A stretch of 62,958 nucleotides of DNA, filler included, from Dugesia japonica (GCA_001938525.1; 6 parts of 6 records of this genome joined end to end with filler, not necessarily neighbours in it); one strand, 5' to 3'; numbered from the whole stretch's first letter, positions 12,485 to 58,674 are shown. Numbers and translations: made by a program. The notes: generated from the sequence alone by a model not told the origin.

Positions 12485-13300
12485 AGTAGATATATAGTAG
12501 CGGATCAAAACACTTGCAGTTATCGCGCACATCCCGGGAGGGCTTGGAAAGACATTACGATTGTGTTATGATTTTTGTGCTATGATTTTTTGAATAGTTT
12601 TTTTTTCTAAAATTTTTGGGATCAGATAATTTTTGATCGGATCATTTATTTTTATCCTGTTGGTGCGTGTGATTATTTTTAAATTTTAAAATTTCTGTGT
12701 TTGGGTTTTTAAGGTGTTTTATAAAAAGTAGGTCAAGTTGAGTTTGCATGTGTTGTTGTGTGTGGTGTGTGAAAGAACGGTTTTAGACTTGAGGAGGAGC
12801 TGGAAATCTTGGAAATAATTTTTTTGGAGTTTTTAAGATTTTGTTGTTATTGGAAAAATATTTGGTCTTTATATTGTCTAAAGGACTTATAGGGTTGGAT
12901 GGATTGATTTTGCTAGAAGTGTGGTAGCACATCAGATCAGTCGTATGAGTTATCGTAGTGGTTTATTTTGGGAGGCTGTAGGTTTGTATGTGGTTGATGG
13001 AATTTGTTGGTTGATGTGTGGTTTGAGAAGTAATGTAATGGAGAAGATCTTGAATGTCGAATGTGCTTTGATTGTTTATATTAAGGGCTTGAATTTGATT
13101 GGTTATGTTTTGCAAGTAGTATTAGTGTGTTAAAGAAATTTTTCGGGAAGGGGACAAAGGTATTTGTAGAAAGACAATTAATTATTAGTTTTTAAAGATT
13201 TATTTGAAATTTTTCATGAGGTGGGGTATGACGTCATAGTCTTTTGAAATCTTTATTTTAGTTAAAAATGCTGTATTTTGCTTAAAATGATGAATTTCCT
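12485..13300 (+). mobile_element. Polinton left terminus and subterminal region
   Basis: AGTAGATATATAGTAGCGG... The first ~170 nt are homologous to the reverse complement of 39820-40009 (CCCGGG core, GATTGTG.TATGATTTTTGTGCTA, TTTTTGATCGGATCA). Leads into a repeat array and a pPolB remnant. Confidence 0.7.
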
Positions 13301-13499
13301 GAAAGTAATATTATTTTTGTAAAAATGATGAATTTTTGAATATTTTTGAGTATTTTTGAACAGGGAAGATTTGTTTTTTAAATATTTTTTCAACCAGGAA
13401 GAGGGAAGTCTTGATATTTGTTTTATGAGGGAAATTCAAAAATTTATTTTTGCATGGAAAATTTAAATTTTTTTGAGGAGAATTTATATTTATGTATGA

Positions 13500-13815
13500 G
13501 ATGGAGCAGTCTTGATATTTAGCATGGTATTTATGCATGGTATGGTCAGTCTTGATATTTTGCATGGTATGGGCAGTCTCTATTTTTTACAAGGTATTTA
13601 TGTATAGTATGGGCAGTCTCTATAATATTACAAGATATCCGACAGTCTTGATATTTTGTATGACATTATAACAATATATCGGGCAGTCTTGATATTATTG
13701 TAGGATATTGGGTAGTCTTGATATTTTAAAGAGATTGAAGCATTATCAATTTTTTAAAAAATATTTTTGCTTTAGATGGAACAGTCTTGATATTTTGCAA
13801 GGGATGGGACAGTCT
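13500..13815. repeat. Degenerate ~27-bp tandem array (GGGCAGTCTTGATATTTTGCATGGTAT)
   Basis: CAGTCT(TGATATT) recurs about ten times between the Polinton terminus and the pPolB remnant. Confidence 0.8.
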
Positions 13816-14148
13816 AAAATTTATAGACATGTGATTTTCATTGTATGTATGTTCCATATGAGTTGCATTTGAGTTGCATTTGAGTTGCATACCAATTGAA
13901 TTTATTAAAAATTTATTTTAAAAAATCAATAAAAAATCAAAATGACGGCTATGTTGAGTTTTAAAATTTTTTTGGTGGGAAATGTATTAAAATATCTCAA
14001 ACGCATGATTATAAGTGTATGTGTGTTGCATTCTCATAGCATCTAAGTTGCACAAATATTGCATTTATTAATAAAAATTCCCAGGAATGCAATTTTCAGT
14101 GTATATGTGTTGTATTCTCGTGGCATCTGAGTTGCATATATATCCATA

Positions 14149-14293
14149 ATATCCATTAAAAAAATCAAAGAGGGAAGTCTTCGCAATATTTTCATGATAA
14201 AATATATCTATCAAAAAAGAAGATTTTTGATATATATGTTTTATCATGTAGATTTCACAAATTCTCGCCTCTTTGAAGTTTTTTAATGGATAT
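14149..14293. repeat. ~145-bp imperfect palindrome
   Basis: Left arm ATATCCATTAAAAAAATCAAAGAGG...CATGATAAAATATATCTATCAAAAA pairs with right arm TTTTTGATATATATGTTTTATCATG...CCTCTTTGAAGTTTTTTAATGGATAT. Confidence 0.8.
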
Positions 14294-14349
14294 ATTTTAA
14301 CATGTAAATATCACAAAGACTCCCCTCTTTGAATTTTTTTGATATAAAA

Positions 14350-15720
14350 TATGTGTTTTTGTTACTAACAACATGGTGTTTATTTACAAAGGTTAGTCTG
14401 TCTTGTATACCCTATTCAAAAAAGGTATATATATCATTATAAGTCAACAATTCGATTGGCTCATTTAATGAAATCAATGCAGATGCCAACTCATACCCGG
14501 GATGCCGCGGAATGATAATGACTCCAAATTATTGTGTGCCAATGATTTATTTCTAAACTCATGAAAGAATTCGGCTTACAAAAACCAATCTAGTTTCAAA
14601 TATACTAGCATATAATCCAATAGATAGTTGTACCCTTTTATAGTCTACATTTTCACAGCCTTTTGATAATCTTGCTTACTAATTTCCTCCCATCTTGGTG
14701 GTATTGCTGTTGTTTGAACAACAACTTGCAAACTGATTGCATAATTATAAGAAAATATCCCCTTTGACATTGTTATTCTCCAATCTCTAAATTCATTTGT
14801 TGTGTCTTTTAAGGATTTAACTGCTGCATTCCATGAAAAGTTTATAAATTGGTACGAGTAAATAAATCTGATTCTAATTTCCAATATCCAATGAGGCATA
14901 TGATTTTTTTCTGATGTTTTTGGTATACATGATATGATCCAATGCGGAAATTTATTTAATCTATACTTTAATATGTGGTGAAGATCATATCCTATCAAAT
15001 TTTGGAAGACTGCTGGTAATTGATAGTTGATTCTTCTGCTTAAATTGTATTTATTACAGGCCACTCCTACATACTTGCCTGTAAAATGATCATGATCCTG
15101 AACTGGATTACTTAAAGGATTTTTACACAAATTACATATTGTACTATGTTTAAATTTCATTTCTTGATCCGGGTTTATAATTGGTTTTCTTTTCCTTCTT
15201 TGGGTATACTATATTATTGCCGATTTCCTTCACTGCCTTTATGAAGTCATATACGCATTCATTTACAATTAACTGACTGTATTTCACTTCATGAGTAAAA
15301 TTATTTGGCAACAACAGCTTGGTAATACTGATTCAAAACCAGCATAAATAACAAAGGGTGGAGTTATAGTTTTTGAGCAATCTTGAAATTCTAAATTCCT
15401 TTCTGTTGGCATCTTGTATAATGTGGTTACCGTCTGAATTTTCTCAAAAATTGGTTTATGAGTATTGTAAGCCGTATTATCCCTGAATCCGCTATTACAA
15501 TTTTCACACCAAATTGATCGAATTTGAACACCATCCTTGTGAATAATTCTGTCCATCAATCTATTCAAATTCATTACTGAAGTGTAATGAAATTTGTTGG
15601 CATCTTCCAATAACAATAATTTGATCTTTTCTCACGTGTAGACCGATGTATAATATCTAAATTTGGATGCTTCATGATAACATCATCATCGTCCTCAACT
15701 GATTGAGATTTACATGAGAA
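14350..15720 (-). pseudogene. Polinton protein-primed DNA polymerase B remnant (copy 1, truncated before motif A)
   Basis: HYTSVMNLNRL, WCENCNSGF, PFVIYAGFES (ExoI), CNLC...VQDHDHFTGKYVGVACNKYNL (HNH/EndoVII-like insert), FQNLIGYDLH (ExoII), KGIFSYNY, then LTFVNKHHV. Many stops and frameshifts. Confidence 0.85.
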
Positions 15721-16036
15721 AACATTAATTAATAAGACTTATAGACCTACATGATGGACATATGTAATTTGTTTTCTCATATAAACACTGACCATAATAC
15801 TTTTCCGTAGTACTATGGCAGTCACCTTTATAAGTCTGATTTACACAATATAGTTTGTACATTGTACAACATTCTGGAAAAATTATATTTATTACCTTTT
15901 ATAAAATTATTAAAATTTCATTTAAAAATTAACATAAAATAAATTATAAAATAAATAAAAACAAACTTTTATCATGAATAGAAGCAGTAAAAAAGGAGCA
16001 TCAACAACAGAAGCATCGTCATTCTAAAATAATAAA

Positions 16037-18236
16037 AGTAAAGGGATAGGTCCGCACTGTCGTAATACCCCTGTCCTCCTCCCCTCCCCCTCCCGTTTTT
16101 TTGCGGCTTCAATTTGATTAGCTGCACATATGTTTCCAAAGATTTGATTGAGCAGATTTTTTTATGATGATTACGTAATTGCAGCAGTAATACTGCAATG
16201 TGATTGGTTGAAATTTAGTCGGTATGTTGATGACGTCATAAATGCAATGATTTAATAGTTATGTAATAATCACACAATAATAATTTTTTTAATTAATGGG
16301 GTGTTTTTGTTTAAATGAAGTGAAATTATTGACCATTTTTTTATAGTTTAAATTAAGTAAAATTAATTATATTTTGTTTAAATTAAACAAAATTTATCAA
16401 ATATGATTTTTTCCCAGACAATATTATCATTAAATTTCACTGAGCAACAATAACATTAAATATTCCCAGGGCAATATTATCATTAATATTTTTTATTATA
16501 TATATTTTATATTTTGCATATTTTAGAATTTTGTGTGATGAAATGTAATCTTAAAGAGTTGACTTAGAAATTTCAATGTGATGGATTATACGTTTAACTG
16601 GTTGGTTTGAAATTTTATCTGATGATTTAGAGATTTTGTTATCTTCTATGTAATCTGTGAATATTATTGAATAATTCTGTGTAATTTATGATGCTTTTTA
16701 ATAGAAATATACAATGTTTGAAATGTTTTATTGACTTATATGTATTTTTAAATAGTTTTAATGACTTCTATATAACTTTAGCACAATGAATTATAATTTG
16801 TATGTGCTGACTTAGAATTTTGTGTAATGAAATATAACTTTAATGTAATGGATTACAGTTTTATACCATTGATTTGAATTTATTTTACCACACACAATAA
16901 CTCATAAAACTTTTACACCAACACATTATTTCTAGTTTGTCACATAAAATTTCTTAGTCAACACATAAAAGTTTAAATCAAAAAATTTAAACTTCTAATC
17001 TGTCACACTAAAATGTAGTTCATCACATTGAAATTTCTAAGTCAACGCTTTAAAACTTTAATCCGTCTCTCAAAAGTCTAATTTAACCCATAAAAAATTA
17101 ACACTCAACAAATAAAGTTTCTAAGCCAACACATAGAAATTATATTCCATCACACTAAAATTATAATCCAGCACATTGAAATTTCTAAGTCTTTGCTTTA
17201 AAACTAAAATCCGTACACTAAAATTAGATTCCGTCACATAAAATATATAAACCAACACATCAAAATATAATCCAACTCACAAAAGTCTAATCCGACCCAT
17301 ATAAATAAACGCTCAACAAGTAAAAATCTAAGTTTTAACGCATTAAAGTTTTATGTCAAGACATAAAAATTATAATCCATCGCACCAAAACTAATCCATT
17401 ACATTAAAATTATAATTCATTCACGAAATTCCAAGTCAACACATAAAAAAGTATATACTTCACGCACTAAAATACTTTTCTCACACAAAACCTCTAAGTC
17501 AACACATAATTTCTAGTTACTTAAAATTTCTTAGTCAACACATAATAATTATAACCAACAAGTTAAATACTAATGTCACACTAAAAATACAGTTCATCAC
17601 ATTAAAATTTCTAAGTCAACGTTTAAAAATTATAACCCAACTCACAAAGGTCTAATTCAACGCATAAAACTGAACAAGTAAAATTCTTAGTCAACACATA
17701 CAATTTCTAACCCAACATATAAAAATCATACTTTATCACACTAAAATTACAATCAATCACACTGAATGTTAGCATATTACACTAAAGTTTTCATCCTATC
17801 TCACAGAATTCCATTCAATCACATAAAAACGTTAAGTAGACACATTACATTTCTAAAACAATACATAAAAATTATAAATCTTTCTGTTAAAGTTATATAG
17901 AAGTCATTAAAACTATTTAAAAATACAAATAAATCAATAAAACATTTCAAACATAGCATATTTCTATTAAAAAGCATAATATATTACACAGAAGTATTCA
18001 ATAATAGTCACAGATTTCATAGAAGAAAATGAAATCTCTAAAAAAATCTCTAACAGCTTGAAATTGATATGAATCAAAGTTCAGCAGCTTATAATTATTA
18101 TGAATCAAAATTTATCTGTTTAAATTTAATATGAATCAAATTTTATCAGCTCAAAATTAATACAAATCAAAATTACAGTTTAAAATTAATATAAATTAAA
18201 ATGCTAAATTGATCAGTTCAGACCTATCCCTCTACT
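16037..18236. mobile_element. Complete 2.2-kb non-autonomous Polinton-type element
   Basis: 16-bp TIRs AGTAAAGGGATAGGTC / GACCTATCCCTCTACT (1 mismatch). Flanking 6-bp duplication AATAAA (16031-16036 and 18237-18242). Interior of degenerate ~21-bp units (AAATTTCTAAGTCAACACAT) with an internal inversion (16625-16780 vs 17887-18042). No ORF. Confidence 0.8.
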
Positions 18237-19019: not shown

Positions 19020-19270
19020 CAATGTTGATTATATTCCACATCATGTCAATTTTCAGTTAGAATGTTAATTTTTAAGCAACAATACACAATGTTGACCGCA
19101 GGTTGTTGTAAACGGATTTTGTTATATTCAATTGGCTTTGATATTTTTAAGATATGTGAGTCCAATATATGCGGATAATAAAATTCAAGCGGATCAAAAC
19201 CTGAAATAACAAATATTAATAAATAATAAGATATTTCAGTTGATCCATAAAATCTAATTGTAAATTATTC
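19020..19270 (-). pseudogene. Adenain-like cysteine protease remnant (Polinton PRO)
   Basis: EYNKIRLQ followed, after a frameshift, by TTCGQHCVLLL (19086-19100 = CGQHC). Same strand as, and close to, the ATPase. Catalytic His motif not seen. Confidence 0.6.
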
Positions 19271-19589
19271 CATGTCATCTCATTCGTTTGTTTATACCTG
19301 TTGCCTTGAATTTGTTACGCTTTTTTATTATTTTTTTGCGGTTGATTTGTTATTATATTACTTATCCCCGATGTAATTCTATTTGATATACTGGATGGTA
19401 ACATGTTTGCTACTTTTGGAATCATTTTAGTTACTACATGAAGTAACGAAAACTCTACATCACCAAGTTCTCCCAATGCATTAGATTTCAATGTTGGTAA
19501 TATTTTTTTTATTATTGGTTATAATCTCTTAATGTACAATTAAATCTTTTCTTCAAAATTAAGTAATGATTGTAAACCAACCATTTTTT

Positions 19590-20050
19590 ATTTGAAATGA
19601 GTTAATCCTAGTGCTACTAATGTAATTGGAAGTAATGCTGCTATGTTTTTTCAATATTTCCTTTCTAGCACTGCTCACATTTACATTTCCACGAACAATA
19701 TTTATAATAATTGTCATTAAATCATCCATTACAAACGTTGGAAATTATTTCAAAATGTGCATTCTGATTGATTTTGAATATTGAATTAATGATGTAAAAA
19801 TGGCATACTTCGTTGTATTTCATTTTATATTTTAATAATACTTACTCGTATTGCTTTATAATGATGTCAATTTTCTGTTTACGTTTGATATTTTCTTACC
19901 ATACTGTTTCGATAGTTTCTTTAAAATGTTTAACTGCTTCCTCTTTTTACCCTTTTTCTTTTTTATATTACGATTTTTTGTTCGTTTTCCTTTTTTCATT
20001 TTAGGAATACTTTTGATCTGACTAACTACAATTTTCTTAAATTTTGTCAT
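19590..20050 (-). pseudogene. Small basic Polinton virion/core-like ORF remnant downstream of the ATPase
   Basis: Lys-rich N-terminus (ORF 19856-20050), then NIVRGNV and a terminal amphipathic AALLPITLVALG. Resembles the small NxLxGNV...ALLxPIL protein that follows the ATPase in many Polintons (recalled, not searched). Confidence 0.4.
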
Positions 20051-20065
20051 TTTAAAATATAATAA

Positions 20066-20700
20066 TTACTTAGTTTGTTTGTACACAGTACCACCATCAT
20101 GATTGAACATATCGGTTCTCACCCTCAGTTTGTCTGGAAATTGTTGTGTAAAGTCGAGAAAAATATAACCATGTGGATTTATTGTTGCATCTTCAAATTA
20201 TTCAATAAGAAATTGCCTATTATTAGGATATGCCTGTCTTGCTAGAAAATCAACAGCTATTTCATCTCTTGGATAATGTATAATGTATAAAAAAGGTATA
20301 ATAGAACCAAGTATTATACATTTAAATTACGTGTCCTTTGACTTTTGCCTTGATGGAATAAATTTTAAGTAATGAATATAACAGTTACATTACAATTTCT
20401 GGATACGTTTGTAAATAAATTAATAAAATTTTTTTCTTTCTTTGCAACCTGATAGAGATCATATACTATGATAACATCGCCCAGTTTCAATCTCTTACTC
20501 AAATCCCTTTATAACGTTTATTTTAATGTTGCAAAATTCTGATAACGTCAACCAATATTTTTCATCTGCACCTCTGTGCCAATATATTTTGCTAAAGTTT
20601 GATTAAAATAAATTTGATTTTAGTAACTTGCATACGAAAGTTGTTTTACAGCTTCCGCTTGGACCAAAAATTCGATAAACAGCATCATTTTTCAACTCAC
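20066..20700 (-). pseudogene. A32-like DNA packaging ATPase of a Polinton
   Basis: Walker A-like IFGPSGSCKTTFVCKLL, Walker B-like DVIIVYDL, LFTNVSRNCNVTVIFIT*NLFHQG..RTRNLN, PRD..VDFLARQAYP...EDAT.NPHGYIFLDF.Q..PDKLRVRTD. Several stops and frameshifts. Confidence 0.85.
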
Positions 20701-24730: not shown

Positions 24731-26051
24731 TAGTCCGTTTCAAAAGTCTGTTCGCACCTATGTAAATTACAAATTATTTTGTATAATTACAAAAATTACA
24801 GAAAAGTCGTTTGAAAAGCCAATGGGAAAGAAAGAATCATTATATTTACAAACGATAGTAAGTTTATTAATATTTTATTTGTTATCCTTTCATCTTAAGA
24901 ACACTCTTCGTGGCATGGAATCAACGAGTCTGTGACATAAGAAAGTGGGTATATTATACCATATCTTTTGTAACTCCGCCCACATTTCATCATCAATAAG
25001 AGGTCTTAAAGCATTCATTTTGATCTTTATGAAATGCCACAAATTTTCAATCGGATTGACATCAGTAGTATTCGCAGGCCAATTTAATATATCAATTTAA
25101 CGTTCACTAAGAAAAGATAATATTGATGCAAATCGATAGCAAGGAGCATTGTCATGCTGCAATATGAACCCTTTGCAGAGGGAAGACCAAACCCTTGCCA
25201 ACTAGGTCAATGTAATTGACAATCTTGTTTTGATAGGTTGCAGAATTCAACGTACACTGTATTTGTTTCTAAATTCCTACACCAAATCCTGAAAAGATCC
25301 CCAAACATGAATTTGCACACCATATTGAATAACCTTAGTACAAATAGGACTTAATCTTACATGTTAAAACCGCCTAATTCTTTGGGAGCGACTATGAATA
25401 CATGTGCAAAACATTGATTCATCACTGAAGACAACATATGCCCATTTATCAACATCCCATTGCTGTTTAGATATTTCCATTGCAATATTCTTTCCCTTTG
25501 CTTATCATTGACCAACGCCTTGCTAACAGCCGGATGACTTTTTAATCCGAACTTATTGAGAATGCGGTGAACTGTGCATCTGGACACATGTTGAATACTA
25601 TCCATGTTACAAATACGTGCTATTTCCGTTAGCGACATGATTCTATTTTTCAGGCATACGCGTCGCATAAATCTGTGTGACCGTATTGATATTATTTTGA
25701 TCTTCCACTGCGTTTCCGATCCACATACATTCCTTCGGTCTCATATTTATGGAAATAATTTGAATGACACGCTTTGACACATCATTATTATTTGCTTTAT
25801 TAAGCAAGAACTATACCCTTCCATCATCAATTCCACAATTATTATTTTGTGCTTCATCAGGACGTTTCGATTATTCATTATATCTAAAATGTGTCATATA
25901 ATATTAAATACATTTAATTTAACTTGATAACATTTTTAAAAATATTATTTACTATATTTTGCAATTAACATTACTTAAACAAATTGAAAAAACAAAAATC
26001 GTTTCGACTTATAAATTTACATGGGTGCGAACAGACTTTTTAAATGAACTG
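24731..26051 (-). mobile_element. Full-length decayed Tc1-type (DD34E-like) transposon
   Basis: ~38-bp TIRs (.AGT.C.TTT.AAAAGTCTGTTCGCACC.ATGTAAATT), TA on both sides. Transposase motifs VSRCTVHRIL, VVFSDES, VWG, LQHDNAP, NPIENLW, LVDSMPRR, with stops and frameshifts. Confidence 0.92.
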
Positions 26052-27799: not shown

Positions 27800-30680
27800 A
27801 TGATTGGATTGAATTTTTTATTCTATGAATCGTTATTTATTAATAACTTTAATCTGAGTAGTGGTAAAAAGTCGGGAATGGGCACCTTTCCCCTTTTTAT
27901 ACTCAATTGTTGTCAGTCAAAGGTGATTTTCCGTAGCAATATAATGGTGATGTTCATATTTAATATCGTTTTTATACAAGAATTGATCAAGTGAAAAATC
28001 ACCGTTGGCAGTACCCCAAATGGAAAATCATTGTTTGAGTGCCAATAGTTGAGGGTAGGGGGGTGATGTGCCCATTCCCGACTTTTAAACACTACTCTGC
28101 AGCAATCTATAGTGCACTACGTAATTGTTCTTCGAGTAGTTCGTTAACATTAATTTCTTCACTTTACAACCTGGAGCGCTTCTATGTTCTACTNCAACCG
28201 GTAAATCATTCAAATAATCATGAATATCTGCTGGAATCACCATGTACACCTCTAGAGTGTATCCATATGACAATGATTCTAGGTCTGCATTTTTACACTC
28301 TTCCAAAATCCTATATAATCCATCATAAACCCTTTCAAAGTTAGAAAAGGGAAAACTTTGACAAAGTGCCCAACCATATAGATTATTAATATCTATATAC
28401 AAAAGATCAACATTTTCACTGGTGGCAACATGGTGCTTGTTAACAAATGTTAACCCTCTTCTTATACCTCCTTTGAAAAAGGTATACATATCGTTATCTT
28501 GGAGCAACTCAATTGGTTATTCCAATGACATCAACGCAGATGCGCATGACATTCCAGGTATTCCGAAAAAATTCAACCGATCCAAGTGTTGTGTGCTTAA
28601 GACTTTGCATGGAGTTGCTGGAAACAAATCAGCTAATAAATACACACCCAGCTTTAAATATACCATCATATAGTCCAGCAAATTTGTACAGTTGAATATT
28701 TCTCACATCGATCATGCTTTTCCATACTATTCCATACTAACATCCTCCCATTTTAGTTGCATTTGCTTTGTTTCTTCCAGAACCTGTAAGCTCTTTGCAT
28801 AACTGTAAGGAAATATCCCTTTTGAATTGGTAATAATCTGATTCTGAAACTCCTATGTAGTCAAAGATGTCGCTTTTAAGGATTTAACAGCAGAGTCCAA
28901 TGAGAAATATATGAATTGATAACTGTTGGTGAGATTAATTGTTGTTTTATTTTGCCGTACAATTAAACAGAAATATTTTTGATGTTGTTGGGATGCATGA
29001 TATGGCCCGATTCTTGAACTTGTTAATACCATACTTGAGGATATGATGAAGATCATATCCTCGTAAATTATGGAAGACCACTGGTAGTTGAATATGCAAT
29101 TGTCTTCTTAAATTGCATTGGTTGAATGCTGCTCCTCTATATTTCCCTGTGAAATGGTCATGGTCACGAACGATATCTCTTATTTCCTTCTTACATAAGT
29201 AACAAATTTTTTCAGATTTGAATTCTTTATCTTTTTTTTTATTTTTTTCCCTTTCGTTTTATAATAAAGAAACACAATGTTTTCGCTTATTTCCTCCATA
29301 ACCTTTAAAAACTTATACACACAATCATCTCCAATAAACTGTCTGTATTTTGTTTCGTTGGTAAAATTATTTACCAACAGCAGACCAGCCAAAACATGTA
29401 AATGTTTCGGGAAATCTTCTAGTCTGGAGGTAAAATCGACTTAAAATCCGCATATATCACAAAAGGTGGTGTTATAGTCTTTGAATAATCCTTAAAACTT
29501 AAGTTTTTCTCCAATGGCATTGTATACATTGAGGCACCTGTCTGGATATTTTACAAATAGGTTCATGCTTCTCATATGCTACTTCATTTTTGAATCCATT
29601 GAGACAGTTAGGACACCATGTTGATTGAATGCGAACACCATGTCTTTTATTATCCCAGTTCATTAGGCTATTTAGATTCATTACTGCGGTTTAATGAAAT
29701 CTGTTGTTATTTTTCAGTAATAAAAGATATATTTTCTCTCCATCTATTACTTTTGATCGGTGTATTATATCCAAATTTGGATGTTTCATGATTTTTCATT
29801 CTCCACTGATTCTTGATTCCATGATAGGACATTGTTGAATAGTCCTGAATTATTCTTCTCAAACTTTGGTATATCAATCAGTTTCATCGGCATATTCTCT
29901 TCATCATGTATTTTTTATATAATGCTACGCGGTTTTTATTCCTTTGTCTAACTTGATCACCTTTGGTGATAGCAAGAATACTGTTAATAAAACAGTAATT
30001 ATCATCATTCTTGATGTTTACAATTGCTTCTTTCCTTTTAAATCTTCCGGCGTTGGAATATAACTTTTCCTGAAAGTCCACAAATATTTGCAATCTTTGT
30101 GATTTTGAAATTAATTTCAAGTATTCTGTTCAACATCCAACTAGAGCCTAGTTCGCTTCTTATTGTTATTTTCTCGTGTAATTGTTTGATACCATCTTCA
30201 AAAAAGTTATCAGTTAATTCAACGGCTCTATTTAATATCCTACAGGTTTTAAACTCAAATTCTTCTCCATTAGCAGTTGTTGTTAATAATTTGAACTCTA
30301 CATGTATCCAAAATTGTATTTTAACTTTCTTCATTTTTTCTATTGACTGAAATACGTTGTTTACTATAGCTTCTGTTAACATTATTTCAAGACAATTCTA
30401 TTTTGATACATTTATTTTAAGTATTCTATGATAGCGATACAAATCCAATTCTATAATAACTCCATCATCCAAAGTATTATTTGTTGATCCACCAACTTGA
30501 TTATTTTCCTCTTCCATATCGATGACCTCATGTAACACAATATCTTCTTCATCAAGTTCATCAAGTGTTTCAAAACTGAACCATCATTACTTCGGTAAAG
30601 TGCGGCAGCATATTTCCAAAGCCAGTTGAGCACCTCTTCTATGGTGCAGAGCTTTGGATGTTTAACCGATTTGGATGCAG
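27800..30680 (-). pseudogene. Polinton pPolB remnant (copy 2, same subfamily as copy 1)
   Basis: N-terminal region with QVGG, GSSWMLNRILEINFKI, AIVNIKNDDNYCFINSILA, WCPNCLNGF, VRDHDHFTG, FHNLRGYDLH, KGIFPYSY, GIRRG, YIDINNLYGWAL (motif A), YVVHYRLLQ. An IHRI-like remnant lies beyond the MITE. Confidence 0.9.
27857..28096. mobile_element. 240-bp MITE with AGTAGT termini inserted in pPolB copy 2
   Basis: 29-bp TIRs AGTAGTGGTAAAAAGTCGGGAATGGGCAC / GTGCCCATTCCCGACTTTTAAACACTACT (2 mismatches). CTG on both flanks. Confidence 0.85.
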
Positions 30681-35260: not shown

Positions 35261-35842
35261 GTTATCAGTTCCAAATATTATGTCTAAGAACATCTTACTT
35301 ATTATTTTTATTTCACATATGAATTGAATTGAATTATGAGTAAACTATGAATTTAATTTTATTATTAAATTATTTGTCTTTATCCTTTAACTATTTAATT
35401 ACTAATATTGTAATCATTTAGTTGCTAATGATGAGAGGAACACGGAATCTTCGATACAGTTGCGGGATTGAATTTAATCTGTTGATAATTAATGAACAAT
35501 GAGATGAGAATTCTGACGTATGAGTTAACATTAACATTTTCGTCCTAATCCTTAGTTAAATTTCTTCATTTTGAAAATATTTAATTTTATTTTTTTTAAA
35601 ATTAAATATTTAAACACAATGAACCTTTCTACTGTAAATGTAAACAAAAAATCATTAATTTCACTTTATTTAAACAAACAATTTAATTCCCGGTCGATTA
35701 CATAATAAATGACGCAATTATTTTCCTATCGCCTCCCATGAAAAATTCCTGAATCCGTCGTTGCATATATAGGTAGCTTATGATTATAACTAATTAATTT
35801 ATGATATATGAGTAGATAGAAATAACCCTAAATTAGGACAGG

Positions 35843-36338
35843 GTTTGGTGCAAAATGTAAAATGTCAAATTTTGGTTCAAAATTTAAAATGTCAAATTTT
35901 GGTGCAAAATGCAAAATGTCAAATTTTGGTGCAAAATGTAAAATGTCAAATTTTGGTGTAAAAATGCAAAATGTCAAATTTTGGTGTTTGGTGCAAAAAT
36001 GTCAAGTGCAAAAATGTCAAGTGCAAAAATCAAGATGCAAAAATCAAGATGCAAAAATCAAGATGCAAAAATCAAGATGCAAAAATCAAGTGCAAAAATG
36101 TCAAGTGCAAAAATCAAGTGCAAAAATGTCAAATTTTGGTGCAAAATGTAAAATGTCAAATTTCAAGTGTAAAAATGCAAAATGTCAAATTTTGGTGTTT
36201 GGTGTAAAAATCAAGATGTAAAAAATCAAAATGCAAAATCAAGATGCAAAATCAAGATATAAAACCAAGATGTAAAAATCAAGATGTAAAAATCAAGATG
36301 TAAAAATCAAGATGTAAAAATCAAGATGTAAAATGTAA
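35843..36338. repeat. Composite tandem array: 27-bp AAAATGTCAAATTTTGGTGCAAAATGT and 14-bp AAAAATCAAGATG(C/T) units
   Basis: Near-perfect units are directly visible. ORFs 35862-36221 and 35971-36207 are just translations of this array. Confidence 0.9.
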
Positions 36339-36410
36339 AAATAATTTAAGAGGAAAAAATTTAAGAGGTATGATTAAATTTTTTATAATAAAAAAAGAAG
36401 AAAATAAAAA

Positions 36411-39400
36411 ATGCCTCCATTAAGATGTCCTAATTGTGATAAACCATTTAAAAATAAACGTGGATTAAATTCACATATTCAATCTAAAAATTTTTTTGCT
36501 TTAGATCCAAATGATTATATATTTTGTGGAATGTGGGATAAAAAATTTAAAACTCAAACCGCTTTAAATATACACAAGACTAAAACTAAATGTGGTAGCA
36601 TTGATTTATATTGTGAACTTTGTGATAAACATTTAGCAAATAAAGAATTATTAAATGAACATATGCGAAGTGAAAAACATATGAAAATAGTTATGAGATT
36701 AATAAAAAATTTTAAAACAAGACCAAAACATATTAAAGAAGTGTTCACAAAAGAATTATATCCACATTATAATATTAATATATTTTTAAATAGTAGATTA
36801 CAAATGACAAGAAATGTTCAAAGATATAATTTATCAACACTTGATAGGACTAAACCAGGATTGGAAAAAATTATTAGAAAGTTTTTTACATTAGGTCATA
36901 AATTTAAAATTAGAATGGGAGTTAATTGTCAATATAGTAAAGAAGGAAAAATAGCTACGTTTTATTCTTACACTACTAATAGAAAANNNNNNNNNNNNNC
37001 TTCAATACCTAAAAAACTAAATCAAATGTTAGAAGAAGTAGAAAGATATATTCGTGATAAAGATCGAAAAGAATCTAATTGGAACATGGATCTTATAATT
37101 GATTTTAAAATAGAATTAAAAAATATCAATCATTAGTTGGAGCAACATATTGCAAATTACCATTTAAAAAATATGGAGTTATTAATATTGAAAATCATGA
37201 TGATAAATGTTTATTATATTCAGTTCTTGCACATAAACATGTTTTACCACATGCAACACGTGTAGGAAATTATATTCCATATTTACCAGAATTAAATATA
37301 ACAGGAGTGGTCTTTCCATCAGGAAATTAGAAAAGTTAAATAACTTTAAAATAAATGTTTTTGAATTAAATGCACCAATTCGTATTTCACATTTTGATGT
37401 AAAACCAAATCCTGAAGANNNNNNNNNNNNNNNNNNNNNNNNNNNNNNNNNNNNNNNNNNNNNNNNNNNNNNNNNNNNNNNNNNNNNNNNNNNNNNNNNN
37501 NNNNNNNNNNNNNNNNNNNNNNNNNNNNNNNNNNNNNNNNNNNNNNNNNNNNNNNNNNNNNNNNNNNNNNNNNNNNNNNNNNNNNNNNNNNNNNNNNNNN
37601 NNNNNNNNNNNNNNNNNNNNNNNNNNNNNNAATAATTATTTTAAAAATAAAATACCATTTGTAATGTATTGTGATTTTGAATGTTACACAAAAGAAAATG
37701 ATATAGAAGAACCAATAAGTTTAGGAATATATTTAAAATCAGATTATCAAAATTTATTTGAAAGTAAATATTATCAATTCTTAGGAGAAAATGTAGTTAA
37801 TGATTTTATAAAGTTTCTTGAAGATGTTAATAAAAAATTTAAAGATGTTATTTTTAAAAGGTTACAAAAAGAATTTACAGGAATATGTCCAGAATTTATA
37901 CCTAACACAAATTGTTATTATTGTGAAAAACCAATAACAGAAAATCCAATTAAAGATCATAATCATTTTAATGGAGAATTTCGTTGCTATGCACATTCAA
38001 ATTGTAATCTTCAAGATAAAAGTAAAAGAAACTTATTTATACCATGTTACTTTCATAATGCAATGGGTTATGATAATCATTTATTCTTTAAACAACTTTT
38101 AAGAAAACATCCAAAAGAAATAAAGAAAATAATTCCACATTCTGATGATCGATATATTTCATTTCAATATAAGAATATTAGATTTCTAGATTCTTTTAAA
38201 ATATGTAAATCATCAGTTGAGAAAATGGGTGAAACACTAAGTAAATCAGGAAATCATGAAATATTAACATCTTACAATTTAAGACCTAAAAAAGCCCATT
38301 TTCCATATGATTATGTAAAAGGAAATAATATTAAAAAAGTAATGCAATTGTTAAAATCAAATAGAATGCCAACACAAAATGATTTCTTTAGTATATTAAA
38401 ACAAAAAGGAATATCTAACACAGAACATGATGAATTTTTAATAGACTATTTAGATTTTAATAATCTTTGGGATTACATGTTACACTACATGAAATTAGAT
38501 GTATTAATTCTAGCAGATTATGTAGAAAACTTTAGAAATATTTGTTTAAACTTTTATAAAATAGATCCAAGTTATTGTTATTCAGCATCAGGTTTAACAT
38601 GGCAAGCTGGAATGAGATTTACAAAACAAGAAACTTATGATACATTTTTAAAATTTGAACGTGGAGTTAGAGGTGGATATTCTGGTGAAGAAGGTGAACG
38701 TCAAGTATTTTCACATGATAAAATTAAAGAACCATATACTAGACAATTAAATATTGCAGAGTATGAAGATATCTTAAAAATGTTTAATGAACATGAATTT
38801 CTTCCAGATCAATATATTAATGATTTAATGGAAGATAGATTTATAAAATATTTAGATGCAAATTCTTTATATGCAAGTTGTATGACAAAACCATTACCAA
38901 CAGGTGAATTTATCGAATGTAACGAGCTAACATATGAAACGTCAACAGATGAAATGAATTATCTTTATGAAGTTGATTTAGATTATCCACCAAAATTACA
39001 TGATAGAACTAAATATTTTCTATTAGCACCTGACAGAATACTTATTACAGATGATATGTTAAGTAATTATCAAAAATCATTTAATAAAAAATTATCAGAT
39101 AAAAATATTAAATTAACAATGAATCAGCTTGATAAGAAAAATTATATTATACTTGGATCAACATTAGATTTATATTTAAGTTTAGGAATGGAATTAAAAA
39201 AGATTCANNNNNNNNNNNNNNNNNNNNNNNNNNNNNNNNNNNNNNNNNNNNNNNNNNNNNNNNNNNNNNNNNNNNNNNNNNNNNNNNNNNNNNNNNNNNN
39301 NNNNNNNNNNNNNNNNNNNNNNNNNNNNNNNNNNATGGTAAAACATTAGAAAATATTAGAAATAGATGTAATGTGTTTATTGTAGGAACTGATAAAGAAT

Positions 39401-39719
39401 ATCAAAATCTTAAATCTAAACCAATTTATTTAAGTTGTAAAAGTTTCAATATAGATGATGAAATTGTTGATACAATGGCAGCAGTTCATTTAACAAAAAC
39501 AAATTTAAATTATAATAAATTTCCATATTTAGGATTTACAATTCTTGAATATGCAAAAGAAGTAATGTANNNNNNNNNNNNNNNNCAATTAGAACCAGAA
39601 GTAGGACAAGATAATTATAAAATTCATTATTCAGACACGGATTCCGTATTTGTTGAGATAAAACATAGAGATAATTTAGAAAAATTAAATAGATTAACAG
39701 GAAATGATTTATTTCAGAT
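36411..39719 (+). CDS. Protein-primed family B DNA polymerase with three N-terminal zinc fingers (Polinton/adintovirus type); near intact, 2 frameshifts plus gaps
   Basis: CPNC..H, CGMW..H, CELC..H..H fingers. After a shift at ~37120: GATYCKLP...INIENHDDKCLLYSVLA. Then YCDFE, CYYC...KDHNHFNGEFRCYAHSNCNL, FHNAMGYDNH, FLDSF, FPYDY, YMKLDVLILAD, RGG, YLDANSLY, YGKT, YSDTDS. Confidence 0.93.
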
Positions 39720-39819: not shown

Positions 39820-40264
39820 AAAAAACTGATCCGATCAAAAAAAATTGATCCGATCAAAAATTTTTTGATCCCAAAAATCTTAGAAAAAAAAACTTATCCC
39901 AAAAATAGTAGCACAAAAATCATAGCACAATCTTAATGCGTTTCCGAGCCCCCCCCCGGGGGGTTCGCCCAGCGCTATGAATGTGCTAATGCGCTACTAT
40001 CCCTCTACTCTGGAAAGAAATANNNNNNNNNNNNNNNNNNNNNNNNNNNNNNNNNNNNNNNNNNNNNNNNNNAAAAAAACTGATCCGATCAAAAAAAATT
40101 GATCCGATCAAAAATTTTTTGATCCCAAAAATCTTAGGAAAAAAAACTTATCCCAAAAATAGTAGCACAAAAATCATAGCACAATCTTAATGCGTTTCCG
40201 AGCCCCCCCCCCGGGGGGTTCGCCCAGCGCTATGAATGTGCTAATGCGCTACTATCCCTCTACT
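39820..40264 (-). mobile_element. Polinton right terminus (...CTACTATCCCTCTACT), assembled twice (39820-40009 and 40073-40264)
   Basis: Reverse complement begins AGTAGAGGGATAGTAG and matches 12485-12655. Contains a CCCCCCGGGGGG palindrome and GATCCGATCAAAA repeats. Abuts a Gypsy integrase. Confidence 0.8.
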
Positions 40265-40995
40265 CTGGAAAGAAATACATTTTTGCTATAATTGATCAAT
40301 TTAGTAAATATACAATTTTAAAGGCTGTTACATCACAAGATGAAAAATCCATCACGAAATTACTTTTAAATGAATGGATTTTAAATTTTGAGACCCCTAA
40401 AACAATCCAAGTAGATAGAGACAAAGGCTTCAAATCAAATTTATTTCGAAATTTGTCAGAAAGATTTAATTTTGATATTATTTATTCAAGTCCCTATCAT
40501 CACCAAGCCAATGGACAAATAGAGATTGGCTATCTTGTAGTTTAAAAGATCAATTACATAAAAATTTGGAAGATGCACTACAACATATAGAATTTGCTTT
40601 AAATGCGATAACGCAAAAAAGTTTAAAATGTAGACCAACAGATATTGTTTTTGGCAAAAAAATAAACAAAGAAATGTTTGTCCATGAAATTCCATCTTGC
40701 GAAGATTCATTGGAATATATTAAATTGTTGAATGATGTTCGGAGTGAAAGAAAGGAAGTTATTCATAGTGCTAGTATGATTAGTGATTATAATAATGATA
40801 AAAGAATTCATAAACATTTCAAAATTGGTGATAATGTGCTGGTAAAATTAGACATGAGATAAACTGGAAAATAGATATGGAGGACCTTATAAAATTATAA
40901 ATGAAATACACAATAATAGCTTTAAATTGAGAAATTCTGAAAGTAAAGAGATAGTTTGAAATTTAGAATGGCTAAAGCTATTTAAAACGAGGGGG
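40265..40995 (+). mobile_element. Gypsy integrase core and C-terminus with polypurine tract
   Basis: GKKYIFAIIDQFSKY...IQVDRDKGF...SSPYHHQANGQIE, FKIGDNVLVK, GPYKII. PPT AAAACGAGGGGG (40984-40995) followed by TG. Confidence 0.85.
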
Positions 40996-45970: not shown

Positions 45971-46904
45971 AGAAAGAGAGAGATAAGTTATATATCGTTA
46001 ATAAAATTATATAAAGTTTTAAATTTTTTAATATTAAATTATATTATTTGTTTAGATGTTTTCAAGTTATTATTTGTTTAAATAGTTCATTATTAATAAA
46101 TAGTTTTTTGTTAAATAAATTATTATCGAAAATTCAAGATTTTTAATTTTTGATATCAACTTTTTATTTTATTATGGTAACAAACTCTATTTCAATTTTT
46201 AAAAAAATTCAAAAAAAACAAAAATTTAAATTAAAAAAAATATTTAAAAATTAAAAACAAAATTAAAAGAAAATATACTTTTTAATAAGTTAAAAATTAA
46301 AAAAAATTGTAAAATAAGATAACTTAATAAAAAATCAAATGAAAACATTAAAATGACATTACCCTTCTAATGTACGTAATCTCAAGTGACAGAATGATTA
46401 TTGTGGTCGGTAAATGTTCTAAATACATAACTACATAATCTAAATACATGTCGGTAGATTATTTTGTTATACCCATAGACAGTTACAGAAATGAGACTAT
46501 AATTTTCAGTGTTATGGGAGTTCTCACGGAAATCCCTTTGTTCCTCTTCCGAGGAATCACTTACAGGTATATTGATGAACCATGTGCAGTTTCATACGAG
46601 AATGTTGTAAAAGTTTATTTCAATTACATCCTTTTCTATATTCATACCCAAGAGAGTTGAGAATCCTTTTTTCATTGATGTGTCAATTATGATCTTTGGG
46701 TGTAAGATTATTAATGTTCCTCAATGTGAACTGTTGATGAAGCGAATTTTCTGATTGACAGACTTTTCTATTATACATTTTCTGTACTAGATTACAATGT
46801 GAGAACAGCACTGTAGAAATAGATGTTGTTTATTCGAACTAATATGTAATCGGCAGTTTTTAAAAATATATTTTGTCTATTTAGTTTCTTAGTTATAAAA
46901 CAAC

Positions 46905-49900
46905 ATGGCGTCAAGAGCAGTTTTGGAAGAATTTCTCAAATTCCTTCAAGGAAATACGNNNNNNNNNNNNNNNNNNNNNNNNNNNNNNNNNNNNNNNNNN
47001 NNNNNNNNNNNNNNNNNNNNNNNNNNNNNNNNNNNNNNNNNNNNNNNNNNNNNNNNNNNNNNNNNNNNNNNNNNNNNNNNNNNNNNNNNNNNNNNNNNNN
47101 NNNNNNNNNNNNNNNNNNNNNNNNNNNNNNNNNNNNNNNNNNNNNNNNNNNNNNNNNNNNNNNNNNNNNNNNNNNNNNNNNNNNNAACGACCAAAGTAAG
47201 TCCAATAATTAATATGCTTAATTGCAGACAGGAAAATATGTCTATTCGCGAATATTTAATGACCGTTCGAGTTGCAGGCATGAAGCCATTGCAAGATCAT
47301 GATGATATAGAACGAGAAGGGATCCTTATTAATATATTTTTAAAAGGGTTAAATAATCAAAATGCTGCCAAAGCGACTGAATTGATGAAACCAAAATCAC
47401 TTGAAGAAGCGTTTAATCTTATTAAAAAANNNNNNNNNNNNNNNNNNNNNNNNNNNNNNNNNNNNNNNNNNNNNNNNNNNNGACAGTCAAAGATCCAACG
47501 AAATAGAAATTTTAAAGAAACGAATATCCAATTTAGAATATAAAATAAGACAGATAGAAAAAATCATGTTATAAAAAATCATCTTAACCATGAAAAAACA
47601 TCAAAAGATTTTAAGAAAAAAATTGAATGTTATAATTGCAAAGAAGAAGGGCACATTGCAAGAAACTGTTTAAAACCTCTTAATTGTAATATTTGTAAGA
47701 AGACTGGACATATATCCAGATTTTGCAAAGGTAATGACAAAGTCCAAAAAAACAAAATATTNNNNNNNNNNNNNNNNNNNNNNNNNNNNNNNNNNNNNNN
47801 NNNNNNNNNNNNNNNNNCGAAAACAATAGTATTATTACTGATTATAAAAGTAAAACCGAGGAAGAAATGGATAATTTAAAATAGCAGCAAGTAAAAGAAA
47901 AACTATAAAAAATTCTAGGCCAGATATAAAATATCCAGATGATATTAATCAAATTGAGCAATTCATCAACGGATCAAGGAAAACAAATCCAATAAATGGN
48001 NNNNNNNNNNNNNNNNNNNNNNNNNNNNNNNNNNNNNNNNNNNNNNNNNATTATATGAATTCTATAAAACGACCAATGGTTAAGTCCAACAATTATTCTC
48101 GTAATAATTGCAATTGTAAAATAAGTAAAAAAAACTATAAAAAATTCTAGGTCAGAAATAAAATATCCAGACGACATTATTCAAATTGAACAATTCATCA
48201 ACGTATCAAGGAAAACAAATCCAATAAATGGGGCTACAAAAACGATGATATCAGAGAGCAGAAGTGAACCGGCGGCGAATAAACCAATTATTAGAGGTTG
48301 TATAGAAGATAAAAATGAAAAGATATTCATTGATTCAGGAGCAGAATCAAGTATAATCGACTATGGACTATTCCAGAAACTTCAAGAAAGAGAAGGACTC
48401 AAACTTTATCTATCCAACAAAGTGTTAAATTGTGCTAATGGGTCAAATATAAAGGTAATTGGTCATTCTATATTAAAATTGAAAATAGNNNNNNNNNNNN
48501 NNNNNNNNNNNNNNNNNNNNNNNNNNNNNNNNNNNNNNTATTATTACTGATTATAAAAGTAAAACCGAGGAAGAAAATGAATTATTTAAAATAGTAGCAA
48601 GTAAAAGAAAAAATATAAAAAATTCTAGGCCAGAAATTAAAAATCCAGACGATATTATTCAAATTGAGCAATTCGTCAATTCAGCGGCGAATAAACCAAT
48701 TATAAGAGGTTGTATAGAAGATAAAGATGAAAAGATATTCATAGATTCAGGAGCAGAATCAAATACTATCGACTATGGACTATTCCAGAAACTTTAAGAA
48801 AGAGAAGTATACAAATTATATCGATCCAACAAAGTGTTAAATTGTGCTAATGGGTCAAATATAAAGGTAATTGGTCATTCTATATTAAAAGTGAAAATAG
48901 GAAATAAAACTAGTAGAGTTAAGATGATAGTATTTGATAAATTATTTCCTCGTGTAATTATAGGCATTAAAGAAATGAAAATGCTGAATACTGCAGTGAT
49001 GCCAGCTAATGACTGCATTTTTGTAGATGAAGAACAAATCCCGTTTATCTCTATAGTAAGAGAGACTGAAAACTAGAACGCTCAGCTTATAAGAGTCCAG
49101 AAGCTGATGCGAACCATTACAGGGGGACTCAAATTTGAATTATTAGAATACTTATAGATAGAACTGTGGTAGTGAGTCCGAGAGAAGAAATAAACGTTTT
49201 AGCTAGAATTATTAGCGACGTGTTTAATTTAGATAATGTTTTATTTAGTCCTTACAAAGATATGTTGGCAGATAGAGGTCTTTTAGCGGCAAATAGTATT
49301 TCAAATGTAACTGAGGATGGCAGAATACCAATAANNNNNNNNNNNNNNNNNNATCGAGAGATTACGATATTTAAAAACACGAAAATGGGTACTGTGGAAC
49401 CACTAATAGAGACAGATCACATCAAAAAACATGTCTTTAGAAGTTACGATAAGGAAAATACAGATCATGTTCAATGTATTTTAAAATCACTAGCTACGAA
49501 TACAACAAATAGTATTGAGAAAATNNNNNNNNNNNNNNNNNNNNNNNNNNNNNNNNNNNNNNNNNNNNNNNNNNNNNNNNNNNNNNNNNNNNNNNNNNNN
49601 NNNNNNNNNNNNNNNNNNNNNNNNNNNNNNNNNNNNNNNNNNNNNNNNNNNNNNNNNNNNNNNNNNNNNNNNNNNNNNNNNNNNNNNNNNNNNNNNNNNN
49701 NNNNNNNNNNNNNNNNNNATTGTTCGAGAGAGCTCAAGCCCATGGTCATCAGCAATCGTTATTTGTCAAAAGAAGAGCGGCGATATAAGACTATGCGTTG
49801 ATTATTGAAAACGTAATTCAGTAACGAAAAAACCCATTTACCCAATTCCAGACAACCAGCAACTTTTTGACTCATTATCAGGAGCAAGATATTTCAGTGC

Positions 49901-50362
49901 TTTAGATTTATCAAGCGGTTACTACAATATTGAGTTAAATGAACATTATAAAGAAAAAACAGCATTTGCAACTAGTAGAGGACAATATAAATTTAACAGA
50001 TTGCCTTTTGGATTGTGTGGAGCACCCGAAACGTTTCAGAGATTAATGTATCTCATTTTACGAGAAGAAAATTTTGAAAAATGTGAAATATACTTAGATG
50101 AAATTCTCATCTTTGGAAAAGATTTTGAAGAACATAACGAGAAACTAAGAACAGTATTAGAGAAAATACGATAAACAGGAGTCAAATTATCACCTACAAA
50201 GTGCCCTTTTCTACGAGATTCAGTTAAATATTTGGGTCATATTATATCTGAAAGAAGAATGGAAACAGATCCAGATAAAATTATAGCCTTTCAAAATTGG
50301 CAGCCACCACAAACAAATGAAGATTTGCAATGTTTCTTAGGATTCTGTAACTATTACAGAAA
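46905..50362 (+). mobile_element. Gypsy LTR retrotransposon gag-pro-RT (gapped, partly duplicated, decayed)
   Basis: Gag with CYNCKEEGHIARNC and CNICKKTGHISRFC knuckles. Protease FIDSGAES. RT motifs SSPWSS, RLCVDY, ALDLSSGYY, TAF..GQY.F.RLPFGL, YLDEILI, YLGH, FLGFCNYYR. Confidence 0.92.
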
Positions 50363-57340: not shown

Positions 57341-58205
57341 TATATAACCTAAAACGATATATATTAAAGTATTTTAAAATTATTTCAATACATCAAATGG
57401 GTTATAATTTCAGAATTGTTGATATAGAAAGTTAAACAAAAAGACTTGATTTCAAGAAAATGAACATTTATTTCAAGATACATCATACACTACCATTGCA
57501 TTTATATAAAAATATTTTTTTTATAAAATATATGATAATAAACAATGAAAAAATCGTAAAGTTGAACTAATATGATCAATATTATTATTTTCAATAAAGG
57601 AATTATGTTTATCCTTCACCAAATTATCTAAATTTGGTTCATTATTTGTCAGTTACACAAACACATGATTCAGAATTATCATTAGTTAATGGACGTCCTA
57701 ATTCGTTTTTAACATAATTCGTTTGAGAAAAGATTTTTCGGCTTATATATAATATTAATATATTAAATACTGTTAAAATTGCCACTGTAATTACTATTAT
57801 GCCCATGTAATCGATCAATGATCAACTAAAAATTTCTCTCCATGATTAAATTTTAAACTAATTTGTACAAATATCTTTCGCAATCAAATTCTTGGGCGGT
57901 ATTCCCGTGGGTCAATCGTTAAGTTACCGAACTGAAGAGGATTTAAATGTAAATTTCATTAAAGTTTATAAATGATGTGAATAGAAATTTTTAATTTTTA
58001 TTTCCTCAGATTTTGAAATTAAATTAATTTATAAAATATTTTAAAATTACTTAACTATTTGACTTAAAACCAAACTTAATATTTATTTATATTATTTTAA
58101 TTTTATTATTGTATAATTCAATATATATATATTATCAAAGAATGATTAAGAAAATTCCTTGAAATTAATAGAATAAAACTCCATAGATTTTACTATAATA
58201 CTTAC

Positions 58206-58674
58206 CTAATTTCTGATTTTTAGAATCTCCCATTTGTTGTGATGGAGGTAGCAGATTTCCATTTTGCGCTTGAGCATTTAACATATTTTCAGGAACACTT
58301 GATAGTAACGGCTTTTGTAATTCTTGTGTACCAATTGTTTGTTGGGTTTGTTGTGGAAATTGGTATTGTAATGGAATAGCCTGCTTGTCATCACAGCCTT
58401 GAATTATCATCTTATTTGATGTTGCTCCAACAAAATGTCTTTGATAGTAACCATTATTTTTTTCCAACCAATCTGACCTTGTCCATGGTGAACCAGGTTC
58501 CAAACGACGAAATAATTTTGAAAAGAAATATTTCCATGAAAGTAAAGTTTTTCCACTCCATATCCAAATTCCACTTGTAATTCCAACAATTAAACTCATT
58601 AAATATTTAATCATAAAAAGTTCAAATTCTGGCTTTTGAGAAAACATTAAGGCATTTCCATTTGTACTAATTAG
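58206..58674 (-). CDS. fz: Frizzled receptor (Fz1/2/7-like) exon encoding TM7 and the cytoplasmic tail
   Basis: [33 protein letters not shown] contains TM7 and the KTxxxW Dishevelled-binding motif. In-frame acceptor CTTTAG ending at 58675, donor GTAAG at 58205 (or read-through to the stop at 58165). Other exons not found. Confidence 0.92.

Follow-up and report, generated by a model that had tools for sequence, protein, structure and literature searches.

Zinc fingers of a Polinton-type polymerase and the tandem array at a probable element end in Dugesia japonica

Do the zinc fingers at the front of a Polinton-type polymerase (pPolB) read the tandem array that separates its gene from the probable end of the element? 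The question is raised by a locus in Dugesia japonica for which the initial annotation had proposed a self-recognizing module, with the array acting as an iteron-like origin or an autoregulated promoter bound by the polymerase's own fingers; the accessible parts of the literature gave no account of how Polinton polymerases locate their own ends. The window (the whole stretch of DNA analyzed, 62,958 nucleotides) consists of contigs joined with a fixed 100-base spacer, and is animal DNA of ~25% G+C, with a Frizzled fragment present. The locus lies on the contig at 31177-39719, whose end at 39719 truncates both the pPolB gene and the element. Very probably, in our view, it is a Polinton/Maverick left end, from a copy that inserted recently, is damaged (or was poorly assembled) and encodes a divergent pPolB containing HNH. 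Its features, all on the plus strand, are as follows.

35811..35820, plus: probable Polinton left terminus AGTAGATAGA, with 10 nt in common with the ends at 4549 and 21487, and 33 bp before the array
35844..36340, plus: tandem array of 27-bp and 13-15-bp units with a common core and an internal ~250-bp duplication (TRF, unit parse, self-alignment)
36341..36410, plus: spacer rich in A/T, containing a 15-bp doublet and the TATA-like TATAAT, a putative pPolB core promoter (sequence, TRF)
36411..36710, plus: three C2H2-like fingers, only the third with all four ligands (Pfam, model, ligand check, fold matches)
36750..37125, plus: terminal-protein (TP, D1) domain with a candidate priming Ser in ESNW (profile, model, fold matches)
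37109..37416, plus: vOTU protease domain with the DDKC Cys motif (profile E 3e-17 and 1e-3 in two pieces, BLASTP to relatives)
37634..39205, plus: exonuclease carrying an HNH/Endo VII insert, together with polymerase motif A, in 524 open codons (motifs, homologues)
39337..39719, plus: polymerase motif B/C region (GKT..., DTDS), with the gene truncated by the contig end (DNA_pol_B E 0.008; relatives extend further)

The order of domains is thus fingers, TP, vOTU, exonuclease (with HNH) and palm. The TP domain, which the initial annotation had overlooked between the fingers and the DDKC domain, was located with profiles of 84 relatives: residues 100-237 fall in a conserved block (E 1e-7) that closes with a GSGW-like motif, where the Ser of ESNW sits, and the DDKC piece falls in the next block (E 3e-17). 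An AlphaFold model built from alignment A3 (18 rows, pLDDT 77) was used for fold comparison; in it the TP domain has a beta-alpha-beta-beta-alpha-beta topology and is similar in fold to the little-finger/PAD of polymerases of the Y family (rmsd 2.6-3.0 over ~92-106 aligned residues, Z up to 8.5), which make up 11 of the 12 best fold matches, at Z 6.5-8.5 except for one designed protein and one unrelated match. The domain therefore has the LF/PAD fold of the PRD1-like terminal proteins of Polintons/Mavericks. A single-sequence fold (pLDDT 39) was excluded from the searches, alignment A2 was dropped for scattering the short TP piece, and a version with 42 relatives was misaligned as well. A word-based search with the TP region alone scored none of 512 candidates, a failure of sensitivity, since the profile detected the domain.

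Downstream, the Cys-containing DDKC domain is present as first reported and can be named a vOTU protease; it is broken by the frame changes near 37120 and 37325, its Cys motif can be read, and its catalytic His region falls in a run of N. Exo I, Exo II, DANSLY, DTDS and an HNH/Endo VII insert of the form C-x2-C...DH-x-H...H-x2-CN were all read directly, which bears out the exonuclease with an HNH-like insert, for which Pfam Endonuclease_7 gives a weak match (E 0.067). Of the three polymerase motifs described as intact, DANSLY and DTDS are, but the first base of the YGK codon is N. The exonuclease and polymerase motifs are those of a protein-primed family B polymerase, in which the aromatic residue of motif B falls on an N. 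The core piece has 235 long relatives (6917 in an exhaustive search), with best identities of 36-49%, and PF03175 does not match the focal pPolB at E 0.1; an OTU-bearing PolB divergent from PF03175 and carrying an HNH motif is what characterizes Beta adintovirus/pPolB2 polymerases.

All but the fingers is already published architecture, since the TP-vOTU match, the HNH inserts and the OTU domain have each been described. The available text of PMC11071308 gives the pPolB order as TP-vOTU-EXO-PALM with cleavage proposed between TP and vOTU, matches the terminal protein to the Y-family little-finger/PAD, locates the priming residue, Ser or Tyr, between alpha2 and beta4, infers TP priming from structure models, and reports homing-nuclease inserts to be common. 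The focal protein shares with that Polinton pPolB the LF/PAD-fold TP, a Ser in the alpha2-beta4 loop, the vOTU Cys motif, the exonuclease and the palm; it differs in having zinc fingers before the TP, the word "zinc" occurring nowhere in that main text, and in being broken and truncated. Likewise, the OTU domain marks both adintovirus PolB classes in the accessible portion of PMC8502044, and HNH inserts in pPolB are described in that of 10.1101/2023.08.22.554363, so that, judged from these descriptions, an OTU-bearing PolB with an HNH/Endo VII insert links the focal copy to Beta-class adintovirus PolB and HNH-bearing pPolB2. The portions available of these two sources mention no N-terminal fingers such as the focal copy has, and the latter treats HNH inserts as limited to nematode and oomycete pPolB2, whereas by Pfam the insert is widespread here, in 57 of 84 relatives.

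The pPolB ATG lies at 36411, 71 bp past the array, in agreement with the ~70 bp first noted. The gene had been called a clean ORF, which it is not: its reading frame is split into five pieces by N runs and the two frame breaks, with 368 of its 3309 bases (11%) being N. No in-frame stop occurs in the 970 readable codons; 6.8% of single changes would make a stop codon if all rates are equal, and neutral substitution is consequently bounded at ~1.5% (a rough 95% bound, equal rates). The suggestion of a young family can be kept insofar as this lack of stops marks the copy as fairly recent, but not on the strength of repeat homogeneity, from which no insertion date follows. Light decay or draft-assembly error would each be consistent with the two frame breaks and the two incomplete fingers. 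The focal copy is young, though damaged, and belongs to a known family.

Whether position 35811 is an element end depends on more than the AGTAG with which it was first identified. This pentamer has 83 sites on both strands of the window, where ~110 would be expected from base composition, and at such a chance frequency it proves nothing about a terminus. The longer AGTAGATAGA-type 10-mer, chosen post hoc, has 11 matches in the window against 0.86 expected, 3 of which lack any sign of being ends, and it matches a family of repeat ends: seven other sites starting with AGTAGA resemble such ends (two of the seven being a near-duplicate pair), alignment at six of them shows homology running inward from that base with unrelated flanks, and the one at 40264 is sharp and breaks the frame of an LTR integrase exactly at the end. 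At 4549 and 21487 homology begins at the first base of the common 10 nt; at the focal terminus likeness to the other ends stops beyond those 10 nt. A hairpin at 35824-35845, inside the terminus, is no better than shuffles (z -0.85). The site has the 5'-AG of Polinton/Maverick termini, on the basis of the 10 nt and the position, and on this sequence evidence 35811 is a probable element end, which leaves the Polinton-type pPolB adjoining such an end much as first described.

The ~500-bp array of 27-bp and 14-bp repeats was confirmed by TRF at 35844-36333 (period 27 x5.3 at 92%, period 14 x9.8 at 93%, and period 14 x9.5 at 89%) and reaches 36340. One core is common to both unit types and present in 24 copies, and a ~250-bp internal duplication has 83% identity; duplication and core-sharing units are of the kind that slippage and unequal exchange give rise to, hence the homogeneity of the units gives no insertion date. 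Two probe words from the array occur 9 and 7 times, every time inside it and nowhere else in the window, where the array is linked to the terminus and was not found apart from one. Among 59 related loci, a 10-mer of the array unit occurs once in each of six, never arrayed. Subterminal arrays as such can be taken as usual for the AGTAGA ends of the window: the end at 18236 (minus strand) has a different array, with a 31-bp unit, 34 bp inside, and the ends at 4549, 12485 and 40264 have arrays inside them too. In addition, a second element with a pPolB has, at 13409-13800, seven copies of a AAATATCAAGAC-like word related to the array unit; they run in the same direction as that element's pPolB, which is 29% identical to the focal one over 146 residues. 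Array-motif matches scoring at least 24 outside the array number three, compared with 0-1 in each of 12 simulated windows; two are in this second element and the third, near 34780, is outside any known element. From the sequence, the related word in the second element weakly suggests a shared reader and not a family code.

Polinton debris is abundant in the window and includes the following remnants.

~14.4-15.7 kb, minus: second pPolB remnant (profile of relatives)
28.0-30.4 kb, minus: third pPolB remnant (profile of relatives)
19-20.7 kb: ATPase and protease remnants, on a contig other than the focal one

Neither of the two other pPolB remnants yielded N-terminal fingers, and one of them is seemingly without its N-terminus. 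A search of the contig at 31177-39719 found no rve integrase, packaging ATPase, protease or capsid genes. The integrase at 40267 was not accepted as belonging to the element: a polypurine tract and then TG (an LTR start) follow it, which makes it LTR type, and a different element end interrupts it. The end at 40009, beyond the gap, was rejected as the partner end (no TSD, different flank); the pair of ends at 12485 and 18236 likewise has no TSD. Rfam gave no matches, and a sigma-70 scan was set aside as irrelevant in a eukaryote.

Structurally, the three fingers were borne out as units but not as complete zinc sites. The AlphaFold model contains three beta-beta-alpha finger units (pLDDT 64-95 per 10-residue block), and Pfam scores two finger stretches (zf-C2H2_jaz, E 4e-14; zf-C2H2, E 2e-10); finger 1 is missing its fourth ligand and finger 2 its second cysteine, so that only finger 3, with the matrin/U1-like H-x5-H noted from the start and assigned by Pfam to the jaz/met type, has all four. 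With spacings of 33 and 29 residues and no Kruppel-type linkers, they do not form a Kruppel-type C2H2 array, in which complete H-x3/4-H fingers follow one another over linkers that are short and conserved; they may nevertheless work like one. For finger 3 the best fold matches are TUT1 (Z 5.5, rmsd 1.4, 39 aligned) and JAZ-dsRNA (Z 5.3, rmsd 2.7, 44 aligned), followed by spliceosomal fingers and ZFa (all best matches at Z 4.2-5.5), values of 5-5.5 being middling for a finger of 40 residues. Solved examples of this matrin/JAZ class bind RNA, and the ESM Atlas neighbors are small viral jaz/met finger proteins. By sequence, phmmer against PDB returned nearly all Kruppel-type arrays (best E 6e-8), which points toward classical DNA-reading fingers for fingers 1-2, and Foldseek against PDB ranked CTCF/ZBTB7A-DNA complexes high, all at E > 1e-3, with nothing at E <= 1e-3.

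Evolutionarily, the fingers are a patchy trait. The 270 proteins collected formed 170 clusters, of which 86 were left out (short, or without a regex OTU match; the finger-bearing P0122 among them), and in the remaining 84 non-redundant long relatives Pfam named C2H2 fingers in 13, Rho_N in 3, 2C_adapt (2-cysteine adaptor) in 1 and nothing in 67 at the N-terminal slot, leaving 71 of 84 without Pfam fingers; regex alone gave fingers in 17. On a rough, unrooted FastTree tree (16 of 86 rows with fingers), finger presence needs at least 11 changes, gain and loss not being separable. Members of the closest clade, P0002, P0122 and P0125, have one or two fingers with H-x5-H, likewise of the matrin/JAZ class, so the focal copy inherited the trait, and several more distant relatives have helices of the typical base-reading type. 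The slot before the TP looks like an exchangeable accessory-domain position, and its recognition as variable is the present yield of this comparison. No description of fingers before the TP was found in the full-text literature searched, mostly exclusive of subscription papers, Repbase reports and supplements; the accessible part of PMC3671162 lists virophage/Polinton C2H2 fingers and Zn-ribbons as separate or nuclease-fused proteins.

Coupling between fingers and arrays was assessed in one scan of genome contigs, which gave 59 pPolB loci, apparently on eukaryotic or viral contigs mis-binned in MAGs. Of these, ORF starts were read in 41 and upstream DNA was scanned in 20; seven were dropped for having less than 400 nt and two for a probably internal start, leaving 11 whose start was plausible and whose upstream DNA ran to at least 676 nt, only two of them finger-bearing. 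Short upstream repeats precede one of the two finger-bearing and four of the nine finger-less pPolB genes, a weak test because both finger-bearing genes are internal and not terminal. Of the two, L006 has its ATG closely preceded by an 18-bp x2.8 repeat, and L033 has no upstream repeat. A long array within 700 nt upstream was found at none of the 11 loci, on short-read contigs of a kind that tends to lose arrays. One host also encodes a stand-alone finger ORF upstream of pPolB, preceded by a 54-bp array in L009 and by none in L048, the two fingers being near-identical with the same recognition helix.

Taken together, we posit that the fingers are probably an exchangeable, low-specificity nucleic-acid-binding appendage of the TP, and the array ordinary subterminal DNA. 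As hypothesized in the literature, the TP would prime synthesis at the element end via Ser or Tyr, and the vOTU would cut between the TP and itself, with the TP left on the 5' end; the fingers would then stay on the TP fragment as an exchangeable accessory domain, where their binding to nucleic acid or chromatin may be largely independent of sequence and may help to load or tether the terminal protein, in a slot that in other lineages holds Rho_N, a 2-cysteine adaptor or nothing. The array would be slippage-grown subterminal DNA, possibly with sites for a host or conserved element factor, and not a code matched to the fingers. In phi29, the N-terminal part of the TP binds DNA non-specifically, which offers an analogy for the proposed finger role. 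It is quite improbable, by comparison, that the fingers read the array and load TP-pPolB at its own origin or repress its own promoter, in the manner of a plasmid Rep protein at iterons. End, array and ATG do lie within 600 bp, exact array units are confined to the focal end within the window, fingers 1-2 resemble classical DNA-reading fingers, a mini-repeat lies upstream of the finger-bearing L006, cleavage by the vOTU as proposed would keep the fingers tethered at the 5' end, and a three-finger unit covers ~9-12 bp, near the size of the repeat core. Yet most related pPolBs (71 of 84) lack Pfam fingers, the matrin/JAZ class of finger 3 and the long spacing without Kruppel-type linkers speak against such reading, no finger-array association emerged from the 11 loci of the weak test, arrays also lie inside other AGTAGA ends of the same genome, and a related motif is repeated seven times in another element, whose pPolB is only 29% identical, for which a shared factor fits better than a family-specific code. 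The autoregulated promoter and iteron module first proposed are therefore not supported.

A functional role for the array, as an enhancer or auxiliary origin that a host factor or some other conserved protein of the element recognizes while the fingers do something else, is unlikely as well, and would follow the model of adenovirus ITRs, which use NFI/Oct-1. Arrays recur inside AGTAGA ends, and both the sevenfold AAATATCAAGAC-like word in pPolB sense and the three outside matches, two of them in the second element, would be accounted for; the similarity was noticed post hoc, however, the motif in the second element is reversed relative to the terminus and 0.9-1.3 kb inside, and the match near 34780 belongs to no known element. 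Finally, the AGTAG could be no terminus at all and the array an unrelated minisatellite or internal region in accidental juxtaposition, as the chance frequency of AGTAG, the 3 of 11 longer matches that are not evident ends, the loss of likeness after 10 nt, the missing TSD and partner end and the insignificant hairpin would allow. We consider this very unlikely, given that the 10-nt match falls within 33 bp of an array, a depth much like that at 18236 (34 bp), that the array reaches to 71 bp before the pPolB ATG, and that a sharp end of the same family breaks the LTR integrase at 40264. A wider proposal, that in a fifth or so of lineages TP-borne fingers remain with the 5'-linked TP once the vOTU has cut, and there recognize a family-specific subterminal array, is a long shot; if true, a finger (or Rho_N) swap together with array regrowth would set replication specificity between co-resident families, as a eukaryotic counterpart of iteron incompatibility, and if the fingers do read the array, origin recognition could be tested with a 100-residue domain and a 14-bp oligonucleotide.

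In plasmid iteron-Rep origins direct repeats adjoin the initiator gene, as they do here, whereas the Polinton end has irregular unit phasing and would belong to protein-primed linear replication. Searches for Polinton subterminal arrays found nothing specific in the available parts of PMC12910113, PMC12368964 and PMC6431247. According to the accessible text of PMC8097293, vertebrate Maverick termini begin AG(T) and have TIRs of 46-1447 bp; the focal end shares the AG start, and such a TIR length is enough to hold the focal array, but the end is AGTAGA and not (AGT)2 or (AG)3, and the ends of the window seemingly share only 10-13 nt. With matrin/U1/JAZ fingers (TUT1, 9j8p; JAZ, 2mkn; ZFa, 1zu1), finger 3 has both H-x5-H spacing and fold in common, whereas here the fingers are fused to a viral terminal protein and fingers 1-2 look more classical.

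Besides the probable Polinton left end at 35811, further Polinton-derived sequence, together with features of other origin, was recognized in the window as follows.
12485-18236, decayed Polinton derivative with an AGTAGA end on each side, several arrays, and a pPolB remnant inside
19074-20671, minus strand, remnants of a packaging ATPase (A32-like) and of a protease resembling adenain
25360-25740, minus strand, helix-turn-helix (HTH) of a Tc1-type transposase
27980-30400, minus strand, third pPolB remnant, heavily broken, with pieces of the terminal protein (TP), vOTU protease domain, exonuclease, and HNH
39820-40264, AGTAGA end with a C-run/G-run hairpin, in two tandem copies (98%) spanning an N run
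46900-50200, Ty3/gypsy-like remnant that includes a reverse transcriptase and an aspartic protease
58168-58674, minus strand, Frizzled membrane-region fragment

The decayed derivative is bounded by ends at 12485 and 18236 that share only about 10-13 nt, which suggests that Polinton ends in the Dugesia japonica genome are asymmetric, with very short TIRs. No target-site duplication was found around this element, and it carries an inverted pair of 192 bp at 16626-18042. A word resembling the 14-bp unit of the 35844-36340 array recurs within it as seven spaced copies (13409-13800, minus strand), in the same sense as its pPolB. In the third pPolB remnant, no N-terminal finger was detected.

At none of the eight AGTAGA ends in the window (4549, 9487, 12485, 18236, 21487, 35811, 40009, and 40264) was the base immediately outside A or C; it was T or G each time, a pattern that may reflect a target preference. 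The end at 39820-40264, whose tandem doubling is possibly an assembly duplicate, sits inserted in an LTR-type integrase that is followed downstream, at about 40990, by a PPT and then TG.

Polinton-type contigs, some of them carrying genes for an integrase, an ATPase, and a protease, were also present in GTDB species genomes (MAGs; 59 related pPolB loci, L001-L059), most likely as eukaryotic or viral contamination. Among related pPolBs, a Rho_N domain occupies the N-terminal slot, as fingers do elsewhere, in P0114, P0156, P0161, and L003, which form one clade in a rough, unrooted tree. At two loci, a lone C2H2 finger is encoded as its own small ORF upstream of pPolB (L009, 3171-3524; L048, 7579-7908); these stand-alone ORFs could represent the source, or a split form, of the finger-pPolB fusion.
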